A DNA stretch of 64,000 nucleotides from Caulobacter sp. (GTDB lineage Bacteria > Pseudomonadota > Alphaproteobacteria > Caulobacterales > Caulobacteraceae): positions 18,409 through 82,408 of the forward strand of contig JAIOXZ010000012.1 in assembly GCA_021741355.1 (NCBI GenBank). The letters are read 5' to 3'. The notes beneath the pieces were generated by a model. The model made no database searches. It was given only the letters and a program-made list of their open reading frames with translations, and had not been told where the DNA came from. Shown in pieces: positions 8,265-16,166 of this stretch (its first letter is position 1; each line of letters begins with the position of its first letter). Made by a program: the position numbers and the translations under genes.

Positions 8265-9638
8265 TCAGCTCGCCTCGCGCAGGCTGTCGCGGCCGGCCTT
8301 GAGGCGTTCGGCCACCAGGAAGGCCAGCTCCAGCGCCTGTTCGCCGTTCAGACGCGGGTCGCAGTGGGTGTGGTAGCGGTCGCCGAGCTCGCCCTCGAGC
8401 ACCGCGCGGGCGCCGCCCGTGCATTCGGTGACGTTCTGGCCGGTCATTTCCAGATGTACGCCGCCGGGGTGAACCCCCTCGGCCTCGGCGACATCGACGA
8501 AGCCCTTCACCTCGGCGAGGATCTTGTCGAACGGCCGGGTCTTGTAGCCGTTGCCGGCCTTCAGCGTGTTGCCGTGCATCGGGTCGGTGGCCCAGACCAC
8601 CGAGCGGCCGGCCTTCTTGGTCGCGGCCATCAGGCGCGGCAGGCGTTCGGCGATCTTGTCGGCGCCGAACCGGCCGATCAGCGTCAGCCGCCCGGGCTCG
8701 TTGGCCGGGTTCAGGGTATCGATCAGCCGCAGCAGGTCGTCCGGCTCCAGCGTCGGGCCGACCTTCATGCCGATGGGGTTCTTGACCCCGCGGGCGAACT
8801 CGATGTGCGCCCCGTCCAGCTGGCGCGTGCGCTCGCCGATCCACAGCATGTGGGCCGAGGTGTCGTACCAGTCGCCCGAGGTCGAATCGATCCGCGTCAT
8901 CGCCTCCTCGAAGCCGAGCAGCAGCGACTCGTGGCTGGTGAAGAACTCCACCTGCTTCATGCCCGGATGGCTCTCGGGCGTGACCCCGATGGCGGCCATG
9001 AAGGCCAGGCTCTCGCTGATCTTGTCCGACAGCTCGCGGTAGCGCGCGCCCTGCGGACTGTCCGCGACAAAGCCCAGCGTCCAGCGGTGGATGTTGTGCA
9101 GGTCGGCGTAACCGCCGCCGGCGAAGGCCCGCAGCAGGTTCAGCGTCGAGGACGCCTGGCCGTAGGCCTTCAGCAGCCGCTCGGGGTCCGGCGCCCGCTC
9201 GGCTTCATTGAAGTCCATGCCGTTGATGTTGTCGCCGCGATAGGACGGCAGTGTCACCCCGTCGATCGTCTCGATCGGCTCGGAGCGCGGCTTGGCGAAC
9301 TGGCCGGCGATGCGGCCGACCTTCACCACCGGCTTGCCGCCGGCGAACGTCAGCACCACCGCCATCTGCAGGATCAGGCGGAAGGTGTCGCGGATGTTGT
9401 CCGCGTGGAATTCCTTGAAGCTCTCGGCGCAGTCGCCGCCCTGCAGCAGGAAGGCCTTGCCCGCCGCCACATCGCCCAGCAGGCTCTTCAGCCGCCGCGC
9501 CTCGCCGGCGAACACCAGCGGCGGCATCCGCCGCAGTTCGGCCTCGACACGCTCCACCGCCCCCGCATCCGGATAATCCGTCGGCAGGTGCTTGGCGGGC
9601 TTGGCTCTCCAGGACGACGGGGTCCAGCGCTCGGTCAT
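8265..9638 (-). CDS. class II 3-deoxy-7-phosphoheptulonate (DAHP) synthase
   Basis: [49 protein letters not shown]. Confidence 0.96.
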
Positions 9639-10240
9639 GATCTCAAACTCAAAAAGTGGACGCCGTCCTTATCGCACTGCGGCATTGAAGGCAAAATAAT
9701 GCGCCCGGCGGGTGTGAGGGGCGCGACCGAGGCATGGCCATGCGCGAAGGTTGCGGATGCAACGACTGTTGCGGTGGAGATGGGGTGCCGCGGCTCCGGC
9801 GGAAGGGCGCAGGGGGCAGACTGTATCGGTTTCACGAAAGCACCCTCTTTACCGACCCGGACAGCGACGCCGGAAGGCGCGCCCTCCCCTATTGTACGCC
9901 CGTGGCCGGTGGCGGGGGATTGAGGCGAAGGAGTTGAGGGAAAACAGGGTGTTGCGGGGGTGGAGGCGAGGCTCGGGGCCTACCTGGTTGGGCGCCGGCG
10001 GTTCTGGCCGGGAGGCCGGCCGCAGCCGGGGACAGGCCGCGAACGGGGAGTCGATTGTCCCGCGATGTCTCGTGTTGTCTCGTGACTATACATCTCGGGA
10101 GTCTCGCATTGAGGCCAATAGCGCTCCAGACTTCTGGCCGGCGTTCGAACCATCTGCCCGGTCGGTTGATGGTGGGTGCAGCGGCGGTGGAGCAGGTTGC
10201 AGCCTGGCAGGTATATGAGCCCTATGGCGGGGGGCGATGA

Positions 10241-11758
10241 ATGAAGGATCGCGAGCGAGGAGTTTTACGGGCCGGAATCGCGTCCGGATACGTCGCCGCC
10301 CTCGGCCTGGTCGTGGCGACCAACGGCATCGCCTGGGCCGCCGGGCCGCGACTGGCCGGCGCCAACCTGGCGATGCTGTTCCTGGCGCCGGTGCTCGTCA
10401 GCGCGGTCGGCTTTGGCCTGGGCCCAGCCCTGCTGGCGGCCTTTGCGGCGGCGGTGAGCTTCAACTTCCTGTTCATCGAGCCCCGGTTCACCTTCTGGAT
10501 CGGCCATCCGGCGGATCTGCTGACCTTCAGCATGTTTTTCGCCGTGGCGATGGCCACCGGCTGGCTTGCCGGCCGGGAGCGGGATCAGGCGCAGATGGCC
10601 CGCCGTCACGCCGCCACGGTCGGAACACTGCTGGCGGCCAGCCGGGCGCTGGCGGCGGCCACCACCCCGGACGAAGTGGCCCAGGCTCTGGCCGACCAGT
10701 TGATGTCTGTCGGCGCCGGCGCCGCCGTGGTGGTTCTGCCCTCGGCGGCGGGGCCGCGCATCGCCGGCGGACCGGCAGGGCTGGACCGGCTGGGGCCCGC
10801 CGCCGCCGAGGCCGCCCGGGACGTGCTGGAAGCCGGGCGCGCGACCGACGACACCGCGACAGGGTATCGCTTCCAGGCGCTCGACGGCGCCGGCGGACGG
10901 GTCGCGGCAATCGGCCTCCGCGCGTCCACACCCAGGACCGATACGGCCGCCGAGGCGCTGGTATCCGGCCTGCTGCGGCAGGGTGCGGTCGCGCTGGAGC
11001 GGGCGGAACTGGCGGCGGCCACCGTCGAGAACCAGGCGCTTCGTCGCGCCGACGACCTGCGCTCGGCGCTGCTGAACTCGATCAGCCATGATTTCCGTAC
11101 GCCGCTGTCGACGGTGCTGGGCTCGGTGACCACCCTGCAGGACTACGGCGACCAGCTGAAGCCGGCGGTGCGACGGGACCTGCTCGACAGCATCCGCGAG
11201 GAGGCGCAGCGGTTGAACCGCTACGTCGGCGACCTGCTGGACATGGCCCGGCTGGAGGCCGGCGCCCTGACGCCGAAGCGGGAGTGGGCCGACGTGCGAG
11301 AAATAGTCGCCTCGGCCCTGGCGCGGATCGGTGATCGGATGGGAAGCCGGCGCGTCGTGCGCGACTTCGCCATCGACCTGTCACGGGTGAAGCTGGACCG
11401 CACGCTGCTTGAACAGGCGATCCTCAATGTGCTGGAAAATGCCGTCGCCTACGGACAGGACGGCACGCGCATCGAGGTCGCGGCCTACGAAGACGCCGGT
11501 CAGGTGATGATCGCCATCGAGGACGAGGGGCCGGGCATCGGGGCGGACGCGGTGAAAGTGATCTTCGACAGGTTCCGGCGGCTGGAACGGGCCAGTGACC
11601 GGGGCGAGGGTCTGGGGCTCGGACTGTCGATAGCAAAAGGCTTCATCGAAGCCATGGGCGGACGAATCGCCGCAACCAGTCCGGTAGCCGATGGCCGGGG
11701 GACCCGGTTCCTGATCTCCCTGCCGAAATCCATTCACACGCCGAAGGGGCTGCTGTGA
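10241..11758 (+). CDS. kdpD: KdpD-like sensor histidine kinase lacking the N-terminal KdpD/Usp domains
   Basis: DUF4118-type TM block (AAVSFNFLFIEPRFTF), GAF-like linker, H-box SISHDFRTPL, ENAVAY/DEGPGI/GLGLGLSI. Confidence 0.85.
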   Translation: MKDRERGVLRAGIASGYVAALGLVVATNGIAWAAGPRLAGANLAMLFLAPVLVSAVGFGLGPALLAAFAAAVSFNFLFIEPRFTFWIGHPADLLTFSMFFAVAMATGWLAGRERDQAQMARRHAATVGTLLAASRALAAATTPDEVAQALADQLMSVGAGAAVVVLPSAAGPRIAGGPAGLDRLGPAAAEAARDVLEAGRATDDTATGYRFQALDGAGGRVAAIGLRASTPRTDTAAEALVSGLLRQGAVALERAELAAATVENQALRRADDLRSALLNSISHDFRTPLSTVLGSVTTLQDYGDQLKPAVRRDLLDSIREEAQRLNRYVGDLLDMARLEAGALTPKREWADVREIVASALARIGDRMGSRRVVRDFAIDLSRVKLDRTLLEQAILNVLENAVAYGQDGTRIEVAAYEDAGQVMIAIEDEGPGIGADAVKVIFDRFRRLERASDRGEGLGLGLSIAKGFIEAMGGRIAATSPVADGRGTRFLISLPKSIHTPKGLL

Positions 11759-12447
11759 CGACCCATCGCCCGCGCATCCTGGTCATCGACGACGAGCCGC
11801 AGATCCACCGATTCCTGACTCCGGCGCTCGAGGCGGCAGGTTATGAGCCAATACGCGCCGACTCCGGCGAGGCCGGACTGCGGGAGCTGGCCCGGCGAGC
11901 TCCGGACGCGGTGGTGCTGGACCTCGGCCTCCCTGACATGGACGGGAAGGATGCCCTGGAGCGGGCGCGGCGCTTCTACGAAGGTCCTGTCCTGATCCTG
12001 TCGGCCCGACACCTCGAGAAGGAAAAGATCGACGCATTCGACCTGGGCGCCGACGACTATGTGGAAAAGCCCTTCAGCGTCGGCGAGCTGCTGGCGCGGC
12101 TGCGGGCGGTACTGAGGCGGGGCCCGCATGTGGAGGCGGCGCCGCAGACCGTGGTGGCCGGAGATCTGGAAATCGATCTGGCCATGCGCATCGTTCGCCG
12201 GAGCGGGACCCTGGTGCGGCTATCCCCCAAGGAATTCGAGCTGCTGCGCGGCCTGGTCGCGGCCGGGGGGCGGGTGGTCACCCACCGCCAGCTGTTGACC
12301 GCCGTCTGGGGACCGGCGCATGCCCAGGATGTGCAGTACCTGCGCGTTTTCGTCGGCCAGCTGCGCCAAAAGCTCGAGGCCGATCCGGCCGCGCCCCGGC
12401 ATTTCGTCACCGAGCCGGGAGTGGGCTACCGCTTCCTGGCCGGCTAG
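11755..12447 (+). CDS. kdpE: KdpE-type OmpR-family response regulator
   Basis: IDDEPQIHRFL, DLGLPDMDG, QYLRVFVGQLRQKLEADP, TEPGVGYRF; 4-nt overlap with the kinase stop. Confidence 0.92.
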   Translation: MTTHRPRILVIDDEPQIHRFLTPALEAAGYEPIRADSGEAGLRELARRAPDAVVLDLGLPDMDGKDALERARRFYEGPVLILSARHLEKEKIDAFDLGADDYVEKPFSVGELLARLRAVLRRGPHVEAAPQTVVAGDLEIDLAMRIVRRSGTLVRLSPKEFELLRGLVAAGGRVVTHRQLLTAVWGPAHAQDVQYLRVFVGQLRQKLEADPAAPRHFVTEPGVGYRFLAG

Positions 12448-12707
12448 TCGGTCGCCCGCAGCAGCTCGGCCGCCCGGTTGAAGAAGCGCTCGGCGGGCGT
12501 TTCAGGATGATCGACGGGCGTCGACAGGGCCGCCGCCAATTCGACACCCGCGAGGATCGCGGTCAGGTCGCCCCTCTGGCGAGCCTCGTCGCGAATGCCC
12601 TGCGTCATGACCTCCAGCGCCACAGTCAAATCGACGCCCGCCTCGGCCCTGGCGAACAACTGATCGAGACGGAAGACGCAGTCGCTGACGACACCCGGCG
12701 CAGCCAT
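12444..12707 (-). CDS. small hypothetical protein (87 aa)
   Basis: AGGAGCAGGACC-ATG ribosome site; GC-rich third positions; 28 nt downstream of kup. Confidence 0.6.
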   Translation of the reverse strand: MAAPGVVSDCVFRLDQLFARAEAGVDLTVALEVMTQGIRDEARQRGDLTAILAGVELAAALSTPVDHPETPAERFFNRAAELLRATD

Positions 12708-12735
12708 GGTCCTGCTCCTGTCGCGAAAGGTCGGG

Positions 12736-14637
12736 CTAGACGGACACCTGGGTTCCCATCTCGACCACGCGCCCGGGAGGGATGCTGAAGAAGTCCGTCG
12801 GGTTGGCGGCGTTGCGCATCAGGAAGATGAACAGCTTGTCCTGCCACAGCGGCATGCCGCTGTGGGCCGAGGCGATCACCGAGCGGCGGCCGAGGAAGAA
12901 GGACGTCGACATGATGTCGAACTTCATTCCCTTCTGCCGGCACAGACCCAGCGCCTTGGGCACGTTGGGCGTCTCCATGAAGCCGTAGTGCAGCGTCACC
13001 CGGCGGAAGTCCTCGTTGATCGGCCCGAGTTCCACCCGGTCCTCCGGCGGCACGCGCGGAATGTCGGCTGTCTGGACCGTGAGGATGACGTTCTGCCGGT
13101 GCAGCACGCGGTTGTGCTTGAGGTTGTGCATCAGGGCGACCGGGGCCACCGTCGGGTCGGAGGTCAGGAACATGGCCGTACCCTCGACCCGGTGCGGCGT
13201 ACGCGCCTTGAGGGTCTCGGCCAGGTCGGCCATCGGAATGGAGTCCCGGTGGGCCTTGGCGGAGAGAATTCGCGTCCCGCTGATCCAGGTCCACATGATC
13301 AGCACAAGACCCAGTCCAAGGACGATCGGGAACCATCCGCCCTGGGCGAATTTCAGGGTGTTGGCCCCGAGGAAAATCAGGTCGATCGCCAGAAACGGCG
13401 CGCAGAGAGCGGCAGCCGCCCACAGCGGCCACTGCCAGTGCCGGCGCGTGATGATGAACAACAGCAGCACAGTGATGACCATCGTGGCGGTGATGGCGAT
13501 ACCGTAGGCGGCGGCCAGGTTGGACGAGTTGCGGAAGATGACCAGCAGGGCCAGAACCCCGACCATCAACATCGTGTTGATCGCCGGCACGAAGATCTGT
13601 CCGGCGATGGTTTCGCTGGTGCGCTTGATGGTCATCCGCGGCAGCAGTCCCAGCTGCACGGCCTGCTGGGTGACCGAGAAGGCGCCGGTGATCACCGCCT
13701 GGCTGGCGATCACCGTCGCAGCCGTTGTCAGGATCAGCACCGGCCAGTAAGCGAATTGCGGGATCATCCTGAAGAACGGATTGGCCGCCGCCGCCGGATC
13801 AGCCAGCACCAGGGCGCCCTGGCCCAGGTAGTTGATCATCAGGCAGGGGAAGGCCACCGTCAGCCAGGCCGTCCGGATCGGACCCTTGCCGAAATGGCCG
13901 ACGTCGGCATAGAGCGCCTCCGCCCCGGTCACCACCAGGAACACGCTGCCGAGCACGGCCGTCCCCAGCACCCAGTTGTGGAGGAACAGGTTGATCCCGT
14001 AGTGCGGGCTGAGGCCCAGCAGGATCGAGGGTTCGCGGACGATGTGGTTCAGGCCCATGGCCGCCAGCACGACGAACCAGACCAGGGTGATCGGGCCGAA
14101 ATAGCGACCGACGCTGGCCGTCCCCCGCGACTGGACCATGAACAGGGCCACCAGGATGACGGCGGCCGTCGGCAGGACGAAGGGCCGGAAGGCTTCGCCG
14201 ACGCCGGGAGCGTCGACCACCCCCTCGGCCGCCGACAGCACCGAGATGGCCGGGGTGATCAGGCCGTCGCCGTAGAACAGCGCCGCGCCGATGATGCCCA
14301 GCAGGAAGACCATTCCGGACCGCCGGCCCATGGCCTGCTGCGCCAGGGCCATCATCGCCAGGGTTCCGCCCTCGCCCTTGTTGTCGGCCCGCAGGACCAC
14401 GACCAGATACTTGATCGTCACGATCAGGGTCAGGGCCCAGAACACGAGCGACACCACCCCCAGGGCGGCCATGTCGACGGGAATTCCCTTCGTATGGGCC
14501 AGCGCTTCGCGCATGGCGTACAAAGGACTCGTGCCGATGTCGCCGAAAACAACCCCGACGGATCCGAGCGTCAGCGCCCAGAACCCGGGATGTCTGGAAG
14601 CCACTGCCGTGGGGCTGGCTGCAGGGGAAACGCTCAT
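12736..14637 (-). CDS. kup: potassium transporter Kup
   Basis: GVVFGDIGTSPLY, DNKGEGG, GAEALYADVGHFG, LAAAYGIAIT, VVEMGTQVSV. Confidence 0.97.
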   Translation of the reverse strand: MSVSPAASPTAVASRHPGFWALTLGSVGVVFGDIGTSPLYAMREALAHTKGIPVDMAALGVVSLVFWALTLIVTIKYLVVVLRADNKGEGGTLAMMALAQQAMGRRSGMVFLLGIIGAALFYGDGLITPAISVLSAAEGVVDAPGVGEAFRPFVLPTAAVILVALFMVQSRGTASVGRYFGPITLVWFVVLAAMGLNHIVREPSILLGLSPHYGINLFLHNWVLGTAVLGSVFLVVTGAEALYADVGHFGKGPIRTAWLTVAFPCLMINYLGQGALVLADPAAAANPFFRMIPQFAYWPVLILTTAATVIASQAVITGAFSVTQQAVQLGLLPRMTIKRTSETIAGQIFVPAINTMLMVGVLALLVIFRNSSNLAAAYGIAITATMVITVLLLFIITRRHWQWPLWAAAALCAPFLAIDLIFLGANTLKFAQGGWFPIVLGLGLVLIMWTWISGTRILSAKAHRDSIPMADLAETLKARTPHRVEGTAMFLTSDPTVAPVALMHNLKHNRVLHRQNVILTVQTADIPRVPPEDRVELGPINEDFRRVTLHYGFMETPNVPKALGLCRQKGMKFDIMSTSFFLGRRSVIASAHSGMPLWQDKLFIFLMRNAANPTDFFSIPPGRVVEMGTQVSV

Positions 14638-14728
14638 GACAGGCTCCGGCCGCCCCGAGAGTCAGGGCGTGGTGGAGTCTGTTCTGGCGCCGGGCCGCGT
14701 TGGGTTTCGATTGGGAAGACGGGTCACG

Positions 14729-14750
14729 CGCATAAGGACCGCATAAAGAC
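14729..14750 (-). promoter_or_regulatory. candidate KdpE/OmpR-family box upstream of kup
   Basis: Tandem 11-mer CGCATAAGGAC/CGCATAAAGAC (10/11 identical); minus strand GTCTTTATGCG-GTCCTTATGCG; about 92 nt before the kup ATG. Confidence 0.65.
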
Positions 14751-14783: not shown

Positions 14784-16166
14784 CTACCCCAACTCCGCCG
14801 GCACATACTTCTCGCGCATGGTCACCAGTTCCTCCGCCGCCGTCGGGTGAACGGCACACGTCGAGTCCCACTGCTGTTTGGTCACGCCCATCTTCACGGC
14901 GATGGCGGCCATCTGGATCATTTCCGGGGAGTCGGGGCCGACGACGTGGACGCCGACGACCTGCTGGGTGTCCTGGCGGACCAGCAGCTTCATCAGGGAG
15001 CGTTCCTCGCCGCCGTAGAAGGTGACCTTCATCGGGCGGAACACGGCGCGGTAGACGTCGATGGGGCCGTAGGCCTTGCGGGCCTCGGCCTCGCCCATGC
15101 CGACCGTGCCGATCGGCGGCTGGGAGAAGACGGCGGTGGCGACCATGTCGTGGTCGAAGGTGGTCGGGTTGTTGCGGAACTCGGTCTCGGCGAAAGCGGC
15201 GCCCTCGCGGATGGCGACCGGGGTCAGGTTGATCCGGTCGGTCACGTCGCCGACGGCCCAGATGTTGTCGACGCTGGTCTTGCTGAATTTGTCGACCTTG
15301 ATCGCGCCGCGTTCGTTGAGCTCGACGCCGGCGGTTTCGAGGCCCAGGCCCTTGACGTAGGGCTCGCGGCCGGTAGCGAACATCACCTGCTCGCTGGTGA
15401 ACTTCATGCCGTTGTTGAGGGTGCTGACAATGCCGGCGTCGGTCTTTTCGAGGCTGTCGTGCTGGCAGCCCAGGACCACGGTGATGCCGCGGCGCTCCAT
15501 CTCGCGCTCCAGGTGGGCGCGGATGTCGTCGTCGAAGCCGCGCAGGACGTTGGCCCCGCGATAGAGCAGCGTCACCTTGCTGCCCAGGCCCGCGTAGATG
15601 CCGGCGAACTCCACCGCGATATAGCCGCCGCCGACGATCAGGATGCTTTCGGGCAGATGGTCGAGGTGGAAGGCCTCGTCCGAGCTGATCGCGTGCTCGA
15701 TGCCCGGGAGGTCCGCCGGATAGGTCGGCCGGCCGCCGGTGGCGATGAGGATCTTCTCGGCGGTCACCATGCGGGCGTGGTCGCCGAGGATTTCGACAGT
15801 GTGGGTGTCCTTCAGCACGGCGCGGCCGTGCAGAAGATCGGCGCCGGCCTTCTGCAGGTTGGTGACATAGATGCCCGACAGGCGCGCGATCTCGATGTCC
15901 TTGGCCTGGAGGAAGGTCGGCCAGTCGAAGGTCGGCTCCTGGACGGTCCAGCCGAAGCCGCGGGCGGTCTTGACCTGGTGGGAGAATTCGCTGGCGTAGA
16001 CCATGAACTTCTTGGGCACGCAGCCGCGGATCACGCAGGTGCCGCCGACCCGGTACTCCTCGGCGACCCCGACGCGGGCGCCGGTCATGGCGGCCAGCCG
16101 CGCGGCGCGCACCCCGCCGGAGCCTGCGCCGATGACGAAGAGGTCGTAGTCGTACTTGCTGGCCAT
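14784..16166 (-). CDS. gor: glutathione-disulfide reductase
   Basis: GAGSGG, GGTCVIRGCVPKK, GGGYIAVEF, HPTAAEE. Confidence 0.96.
   Translation of the reverse strand: MASKYDYDLFVIGAGSGGVRAARLAAMTGARVGVAEEYRVGGTCVIRGCVPKKFMVYASEFSHQVKTARGFGWTVQEPTFDWPTFLQAKDIEIARLSGIYVTNLQKAGADLLHGRAVLKDTHTVEILGDHARMVTAEKILIATGGRPTYPADLPGIEHAISSDEAFHLDHLPESILIVGGGYIAVEFAGIYAGLGSKVTLLYRGANVLRGFDDDIRAHLEREMERRGITVVLGCQHDSLEKTDAGIVSTLNNGMKFTSEQVMFATGREPYVKGLGLETAGVELNERGAIKVDKFSKTSVDNIWAVGDVTDRINLTPVAIREGAAFAETEFRNNPTTFDHDMVATAVFSQPPIGTVGMGEAEARKAYGPIDVYRAVFRPMKVTFYGGEERSLMKLLVRQDTQQVVGVHVVGPDSPEMIQMAAIAVKMGVTKQQWDSTCAVHPTAAEELVTMREKYVPAELG

Follow-up and report, generated by a model that had tools for sequence, protein, structure and literature searches.

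A shortened KdpD/KdpE paralogue without the pump-directed domain and its predicted wiring to the potassium transporter Kup in a Caulobacter-family bacterium

In the textbook view, KdpD and KdpE are a two-component system that serves a single operon, and Kup is a constitutive K+ transporter, classically of low affinity. KdpD's N-terminal domain is an atypical serine kinase, which phosphorylates KdpB at Ser162 and inhibits the pump (PMC11018627). E. coli KdpE recognizes the half-sites TTTATA and TTTACA, 5 bp apart, and its footprint extends from -72 to -50 (PMC3264566). Here, we analyzed a 64-kb stretch of Caulobacter sp. DNA (contig JAIOXZ010000012.1, 64-72% G+C; hereafter the window), in which genes for a truncated KdpD-type histidine kinase and a KdpE-type response regulator lie next to kup. 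The evidence supports the view that this arrangement comprises a KdpD/KdpE paralogue stripped of the pump-directed domain and wired to Kup, and Kup is probably the K+-starvation-induced uptake system of this freshwater bacterium of the Caulobacter family. Our literature searches returned nothing on a control of kup by KdpE, on a KdpE box at kup or on this gene trio. Protein searches placed the closest relatives of the window proteins in Caulobacter, Phenylobacterium and unclassified Caulobacteraceae, and only two lake-water metagenome runs (X1 and X2) carry the window sequence at full word share, which points to an uncultured freshwater member of Caulobacteraceae as its source.

A shortened kinase, its regulator and the adjacent kup gene

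In the preliminary description of the window, the 505-aa kinase was said to begin directly at the block of four transmembrane (TM) helices, without the KdpD and Usp domains, and both Pfam and tblastn agree with this. Sixteen residues precede TM1. Pfam assigns residues 17-122 to DUF4118 (PF13493, E = 1e-26), 274-341 to HisKA and 386-496 to HATPase_c, and detects neither PF02702 (KdpD) nor a Usp domain in the protein. A tblastn search with the N-terminal domain of Caulobacteraceae KdpD revealed no remnant of this region in the 64 kb, the matches being the kinase and the regulator themselves. Of the 895 positions in the NCBIfam KdpD model, the kinase covers 400-883, with 219.9 bits against an equivalog cut-off of 1123 bits; since a canonical Caulobacter KdpD also falls short of it (696 bits), this cut-off is uninformative for the lineage. 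An AlphaFold2 model (pLDDT, the predicted local distance difference test, 81) comprises four helices in the membrane, a small alpha/beta domain (residues 143-235), a pair of long dimerization and histidine phosphotransfer (DHp) helices and a catalytic and ATP-binding (CA) domain. The alpha/beta domain may be GAF-like; it has no Pfam GAF match, and a fold search with the kinase model gave mainly generic DHp-CA matches. The phospho-acceptor of the DHp domain is His283, the H, N, G1, F and G2 motifs are all intact, and the SHDFRTPL motif aligns with the E. coli KdpD structure 6lgq_C.

A neighbor-joining tree unites the truncated kinases in a single clade, whose sister group is formed by the C-terminal parts of full-length Caulobacteraceae KdpD and which lies within the KdpD group of alphaproteobacteria. 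The window kinase shares 52-58% identity with the C-terminal halves of Caulobacteraceae KdpD among the matches listed; a genome-collection scan with the kinase alignment, from which the kdpF promoters discussed below were taken, listed only full-length KdpD loci, at no more than 58% identity. Members from both Caulobacter and Phenylobacterium are present in the truncated and in the full-length clade, which argues for an old duplication and loss of the N-terminal half and not for a series of recent truncations. The two clades are told apart by just five positions (A55/G, R227/E, F285/L, A377/P and L458/A). Otherwise, the consensus of the truncated kinases equals that of canonical Caulobacteraceae KdpD in the membrane block, the Arg-rich segment following TM4 and the DHp helix. 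With so few differences, the economical expectation is that signal and partner specificity are unchanged. The kinase is best read as belonging to a KdpD/KdpE paralogue minus the KdpB-directed serine-kinase module. The view of the missing region as an input domain for ATP, cyclic di-AMP and the nitrogen-related phosphotransferase system (PTS-Ntr), adopted initially, is dated, the KdpD domain being a serine kinase that inhibits KdpB (PMC11018627). Given this activity, its loss from a module without a pump becomes more understandable.

The regulator contains the Pfam domains Response_reg and Trans_reg_C, and KdpE is its best NCBIfam family (234.6 bits; runner-up family, 168.8 bits). It does not reach the KdpE cut-off of 325 bits. 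KdpE proteins encoded inside Caulobacteraceae kdpFABCDE operons attain only 240-247 bits on the same model, and the shortfall is accordingly due to the lineage. When the regulator is aligned, without gaps, to E. coli KdpE (6lgq_D), the phospho-acceptor Asp D56 pairs with D52, R197 with R193, R204 with R200 and T219 with T215; mutation of R193, R200 or T215 in E. coli KdpE abolishes DNA binding and kdpFABC induction (PMC3264566). The regulators from loci of this type nest among canonical Caulobacteraceae KdpE in a neighbor-joining tree and share 65-73% identity with them. No alignment column discriminates the two groups, and their recognition-helix consensus is identical.

The start of the regulator gene overlaps the stop of the kinase gene by 4 nt, which points to translational coupling. 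As first described, the pair converges on kup, in agreement with gene coordinates and strands. The product of kup matches K_trans (574 bits) and K_trans_C (173 bits) in Pfam and Kup in NCBIfam (677 bits), and plant HAK5 is its best match among solved structures. This gene trio recurs in relatives: nine loci from Caulobacter- and Phenylobacterium-type genomes were compared, namely, the window, L001-L003, L085-L088 and L090, the last of which came from a metagenome scan. Among homologous truncated kinases with 59-84% identity to that of the window, seven of seven have an overlapping or abutting regulator gene and a convergent kup alongside, and the trio-linked Kup orthologues share 71-93% identity. 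The flanking genes are unrelated in every trio locus, and in L086 two unrelated genes are inserted between the regulator gene and kup.

In Phenylobacterium terrae (L087, 1-13530), the trio lies amid type IV secretion/conjugation genes, with TraG/VirD4-like and T2SSE genes upstream and TrbC, VirB3 and VirB4 genes downstream. This suggests that the trio is carried there on an integrative or conjugative element. Carriers of the trio include the cultured Caulobacter sp. 17J80-11 (GCA_014349105.1) and P. terrae (GCA_042681205.1), the assemblies GCA_030645575.1 and GCA_049323695.1, and contigs of 4.48 Mb in ERZ25039495, 3.21 Mb in ERZ25074234 and 3.11 Mb in JGI 3300048598.

KdpE-type direct repeats at kup and kdpF promoters

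Upstream of kup, on the minus strand, two 11-bp repeats, GTCTTTATGCG (14750-14740) and GTCCTTATGCG (14739-14729), follow each other in tandem. They had been noticed earlier, and direct reading of the sequence bears out that they are identical at 10 of 11 positions and end 92 nt ahead of the kup ATG; they begin 33 nt past the stop of gor. Their half-site hexamers, TTTATG (14747-14742) and CTTATG (14736-14731), match the TTTATA-N5-TTTACA arrangement of E. coli. The pattern YTTAYRC-N4-YTTAYRC, with at most one mismatch, occurs once in the window, compared to 0.06 occurrences expected from shuffles. Whether trio-bearing genomes keep the box had been named as a check, and all nine loci proved positive: each contains an 11-bp-period YTTAYGC repeat upstream of kup, with the TTA cores exactly 11 bp apart.

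The same element precedes kdp operons. A strict form of the box pattern matched 15 times in 2.5 Mb of compared loci, searched on both strands, and about 0.1 matches would be expected by chance, as estimated from base composition. Four of the matches lie upstream of a trio kup, nine upstream of kdpF or kdpA in full kdpFABCDE loci, and two on the opposite strand beside kdp loci; the remaining trio loci either joined the set later or fit the looser pattern only. This looser pattern was found in 22 kdpF promoters across Alphaproteobacteria. The similarity is illustrated by the kdp box of Caulobacter sp. L008, ATCCTTATGCGGCCCTTATGCGCG, set against the kup box of the window, GTCTTTATGCGGTCCTTATGCGCG.

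No gaps are needed to align the promoters of kup with those of kdpF from the box through a -10-like element, and in both an (A)TCGAA followed by a GCTAGA-like element stands at fixed offsets past the box. The consensus of Caulobacter promoters is TTGACGS/GCtANAWC. With this consensus in mind, we infer that TCGAAA represents the -35 element and GCCAGAAC a Caulobacter-type -10 element. Transcription of kup would then start near 14674, placing the box at about -76 to -55. For C. crescentus, MEME analysis of chromatin immunoprecipitation sequencing data yielded a different KdpE motif, TCGAMRACGCSMKC, which is located 113 bp upstream of kdpA and is not the direct repeat described here (10.1101/2023.07.05.547876). 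The TCGAA element of the window (14710-14706), about 19 bp past the second half-site, resembles the start of TCGAMRACGCSMKC in sequence.

Additional KdpE-type boxes were seen by canonical kdp loci: L016 1424 (-), L030 1386 (-), L031 1000 and 967 (-), L023 774 (+), L006 68 (+), L020 1705 (-) and L059 3648 and 3450 (-). They point away from kdpF or precede other small open reading frames (ORFs), mostly without a Pfam family; the sole Pfam match among these ORFs is an ECF/PhyR-type (ECF, extracytoplasmic function) sigma factor gene preceded by an additional box in L059. The KdpE regulon of alphaproteobacteria may thus be wider than kdpFABC. In the alphaproteobacterial metagenome-assembled genome (MAG) L044 (10210-10300), kup follows kdpE on the same strand, and the spacer between them contains TTTAC and TTTAT 21 bp apart and then TATCGAAC, which may constitute a degenerate or differently spaced KdpE site.

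Features of the locus (positions in the window)
Feature	Position	Strand	Basis or remark
Class II 3-deoxy-D-arabino-heptulosonate 7-phosphate (DAHP) synthase gene	8265-9638	-	Neighbor on the kinase side
Truncated KdpD-type sensor histidine kinase, 505 aa	10241-11758	+	Pfam, NCBIfam, AlphaFold2, tree
KdpE-type OmpR-family response regulator, 230 aa	11755-12447	+	KdpE ranks first among NCBIfam families
Kup (KUP/HAK/KT family) K+ transporter, 633 aa, predicted regulated target	12736-14637	-	Pfam, NCBIfam
Predicted kup core promoter	14681-14710	-	In-register alignment of kup and kdpF promoters
-10-like element GCCAGAAC	14688-14681	-	18-nt spacer to the -35-like element
-35-like element TCGAAA	14710-14705	-	
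Predicted KdpE box, two 11-bp direct repeats	14729-14750	-	Sequence, conservation
Glutathione reductase gene (gor)	14784-16166	-	Upstream neighbor of kup

A gene-free spacer of 600 bp (9639-10240) separates the divergent DAHP synthase and kinase genes. Neither a KdpE box nor an Rfam match nor any trace of the N-terminal KdpD region is present in it, and without such a box the two-component operon is probably not autoregulated through one. Between the stops of the regulator gene and kup lies an 87-aa ORF on the kup strand (12444-12707, minus strand), which may be cotranscribed with kup. Its product is conserved in the closest trio loci only, with 69-71% identity to the L001 and L090 counterparts and, over 64 aa, 47% identity to that of L085, and was not found in the remaining ones; the orthologue in L001 is a called gene with no Pfam family in the gene table. 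In both metagenome runs, one short contig joined positions 9436 and 15077 and skipped 5640 bp, including the whole trio. This junction is most likely a mapping artefact: the evidence for it amounts to one side of 21 nt and a sequence of 9 bp in common, and it would cut two genes internally.

Probable activation of kup and alternative readings

It appears likely to us that, at limiting K+, the KdpD/KdpE paralogue without the serine-kinase module activates kup and that the three genes form a self-contained K+ uptake module. In such a circuit, the membrane/GAF-like/kinase core would sense K+ limitation and phosphorylate the KdpE-type regulator, and phosphorylated KdpE (KdpE~P) would bind the tandem YTTAYGC repeats, whose centre lies some 65 bp upstream of the predicted kup start. 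Binding would be expected to activate kup, because the position of the box is that of KdpE sites at kdpFABC promoters. Kup would hold the place of KdpFABC in the classical circuit, and the KdpB-silencing serine-kinase domain would be dispensable, there being no pump to regulate. The rewiring to Kup put forward in the preliminary description is borne out as far as the kdpF-type box in register, the identity of this box with kdpF boxes and its conservation, the DNA-contact residues of KdpE, the gene linkage and the domain architecture are concerned; the binding, its activating rather than repressing effect, the role of K+ as signal and the start site of transcription are predictions.

Several points weigh against this reading. 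A classically low-affinity transporter is of uncertain benefit under K+ starvation. The start of kup transcription is itself a prediction, and a scan for E. coli-type promoters detected none upstream of kup. The absence of kdpFABC and of a separate KdpD/Usp protein is established for the 64-kb window only. C. crescentus, the one relative that has been studied, requires kup when K+ is abundant; the gene is under positive control of ChvGI there, its overexpression is harmful at low K+, and it has not been reported among the KdpE targets (10.1101/2023.07.05.547876). Finally, truncated E. coli KdpD variants are unable to repress at high K+ (PMC2714519), and for this reason regulation at the locus described here may be leaky or differently tuned.

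Whether the trio acts in place of the Kdp pump, as proposed at the outset, or beside it is the question on which the readings diverge most. No kdpFABC adjoins the trio, as noted initially: tblastn gave no match to KdpA, KdpB or KdpC in the 64-kb window beyond the kinase and the regulator themselves, and the other eight trio loci contain no kdp genes within 6-8 kb. Comparison of metagenome contigs with the whole kdpFABCDE locus was ambiguous, many organisms contributing, and only a conserved 601-bp kdpB stretch, 83-89% identical among 16 Caulobacteraceae, was usable for depth. In run X1, the window contigs have a word depth of 31-34, as against depths of 2-8, plus one of 15, for contigs matching the kdpB stretch at no less than 80% likeness, which sum to 22-26 in most bins. 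The sole contig with the depth signature of the window falls on the kdpD C-terminal/kdpE part of the reference, i.e., it is the trio itself. These contig depths suggest that the organism lacks kdpB. Thus, "instead of the Kdp pump" is probable and agrees with the lack of kdpABC in the window and of kdpB at the depth of the organism, but this evidence is only suggestive, and one locus has both systems: in L007, a Caulobacteraceae MAG, a kup 54% identical to that of the window is divergent from a full kdpFABCDE operon, and the intergenic region (1985-2230) contains two back-to-back KdpE boxes, one towards each gene. KdpE-type control of kup therefore also occurs next to the canonical system. It is conceivable, albeit on balance doubtful, that the trio is an accessory branch, with canonical kdpFABCDE located elsewhere in the genome and both pairs sharing signal and box to induce Kdp and this Kup paralogue jointly. 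As no residues discriminate the regulators and only five positions the kinases, the two pathways would not be insulated; Caulobacter and Phenylobacterium are represented in both kinase clades, as expected from an old duplication; the boxed kup of L007 adjoins kdpFABCDE; and KdpD variants consisting of only TM, GAF and DHp-CA parts have been reported in species with a Kdp pump (PMC11018627). The lack of kdpABC in the window and of kdp genes around all nine trios, together with the low depth of the kdpB stretch, speaks against an accessory branch, whereas the missing insulation between trio and canonical pairs fits either an absence of co-occurrence or tolerated cross talk.

The remaining alternatives concern the sign, the signal and the existence of the link. 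It is quite improbable that KdpE~P shuts down kup at scarce K+ because a low-affinity K+/H+ symporter would be harmful under these conditions. Overexpression of kup is indeed detrimental to C. crescentus at limiting K+, and its downregulation by an unknown mechanism has been suggested (10.1101/2023.07.05.547876). However, the box is located upstream of the -35-like element, clear of the -35- and -10-like elements and of the 5' untranslated region, in the exact register of kdpF promoters, where KdpE activates, and at the activating-site position of E. coli, -72 to -50 (PMC3264566); moreover, a dedicated kinase-regulator-transporter module that solely silences its own transporter would be unparsimonious. 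We also consider it unlikely that the wiring is as proposed and the kinase, without the N-terminal domains, responds to osmotic or ionic stress, to turgor or to pH and not to K+ limitation, with Kup mediating osmoprotective K+ uptake, even though the KdpD stimulus is still debated (PMC2714519) and Kup of C. crescentus is tied to hyperosmotic conditions, where it is induced by ChvGI (10.1101/2023.07.05.547876). In the TM block, in the Arg-rich segment that follows TM4 and in the cytoplasmic core, the consensus is almost that of canonical Caulobacteraceae KdpD, and truncated E. coli KdpD variants remain responsive to K+ limitation (PMC2714519). It is very improbable that the repeat arose by chance or is structural, e.g., a gor terminator, and that the genes adjoin by coincidence. 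The repeat does follow the gor stop closely and in the window is flanked by GGTCAC...GTGACC, but the upstream gene differs at every trio locus, with the box kept and the flanking inverted repeat not, and the conservation of the box and its single, scarcely expected occurrence in the window contradict this explanation. A terminator or riboswitch was rejected, since RNA folding was no better than for shuffles (z = +1.1) and no Rfam match was obtained; nor was there a T-run after the box or a fitting terminator-like site.

Activation of kup at limiting K+ thus being preferred, a bolder version can be formulated, which we put forward tentatively and regard as possible but less than probable: in a freshwater/soil lineage of Caulobacteraceae, the trio might fully replace KdpFABC as the K+-starvation response, as a portable unit in which Kup would be a high-affinity inducible scavenger, a bacterial counterpart of HAK5, and the kinase a minimal natural K+ sensor. 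If replacement is the true reading, the TM/GAF-like/kinase core alone would suffice for physiological K+ sensing. The circuit would also lend independent evolutionary support to the notion that KdpD's N-terminal domain serves pump control and not K+ sensing, and it suggests that some bacteria meet low K+ with an inducible Kup and not with an ATP-driven pump. A natural minimal KdpD may be useful for locating the K+-sensing site. There is also a consequence for annotation: kinases of this type are labelled just "DUF4118 domain-containing protein" or "sensor histidine kinase", and kup would be assumed to be unregulated.

Comparison with known potassium systems

Plant HAK5-type transporters of the KUP/HAK/KT family belong to the same family as the window Kup, and HAK5 is transcriptionally induced by K+ starvation. 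They differ in being eukaryotic and controlled by unrelated regulators, and the likeness does not imply a high K+ affinity of the window Kup. Closer in descent is C. crescentus, of the same family, in which Kup and KdpDE are likewise the main players and KdpE is phosphorylated at D56, but in which kup stands alone and a full-length KdpD is encoded with kdpABC; there, a second, unidentified kinase also phosphorylates KdpE (10.1101/2023.07.05.547876). Mutation of A87, G253 or S456 in the Kup of C. crescentus improves growth at low K+.

Shortened forms of KdpD have been described before. The engineered N-terminal truncations of E. coli KdpD by Heermann, Jung, Kuhn and coworkers resemble the window kinase, and in them the membrane-anchored C-terminal part suffices for a response to K+ limitation; they are laboratory constructs that fail to repress at high K+, whereas the kinases described here form a natural, conserved lineage (PMC2714519). 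Silberberg et al. (2024) catalogued, among split and shortened KdpD variants, a histidine kinase with only the TM, GAF and DHp-CA parts; in contrast to the locus described here, these variants occur in species with an annotated Kdp pump, usually together with a separate KdpD/Usp serine kinase, and neither a tie to kup nor one to a KdpE box close to kup was described (PMC11018627).

With the E. coli KdpD/KdpE system, the trio shares the kinase core of TM, putative GAF, DHp and CA parts, an OmpR-family regulator with the same DNA contacts, and a promoter with two 6-bp TTTAYR half-sites at an 11-bp period, which in kdpFABC lie at about -72 to -50 (PMC3264566). It departs from this system in lacking the KdpD and Usp domains and in having kup, not a P-type pump, as its predicted target. 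Furthermore, its two-component genes are neither downstream of the target nor preceded by a box, which makes autoregulation by read-through unlikely. The canonical kdpFABCDE operons of Caulobacteraceae and other alphaproteobacteria (L005-L021 and others) have the box consensus tCYTTATGC-N4-YTTAYGC and the promoter layout in common with the trio, but they encode full-length kinases of about 860-900 aa that form the separate sister clade, and their target is kdpFABC.

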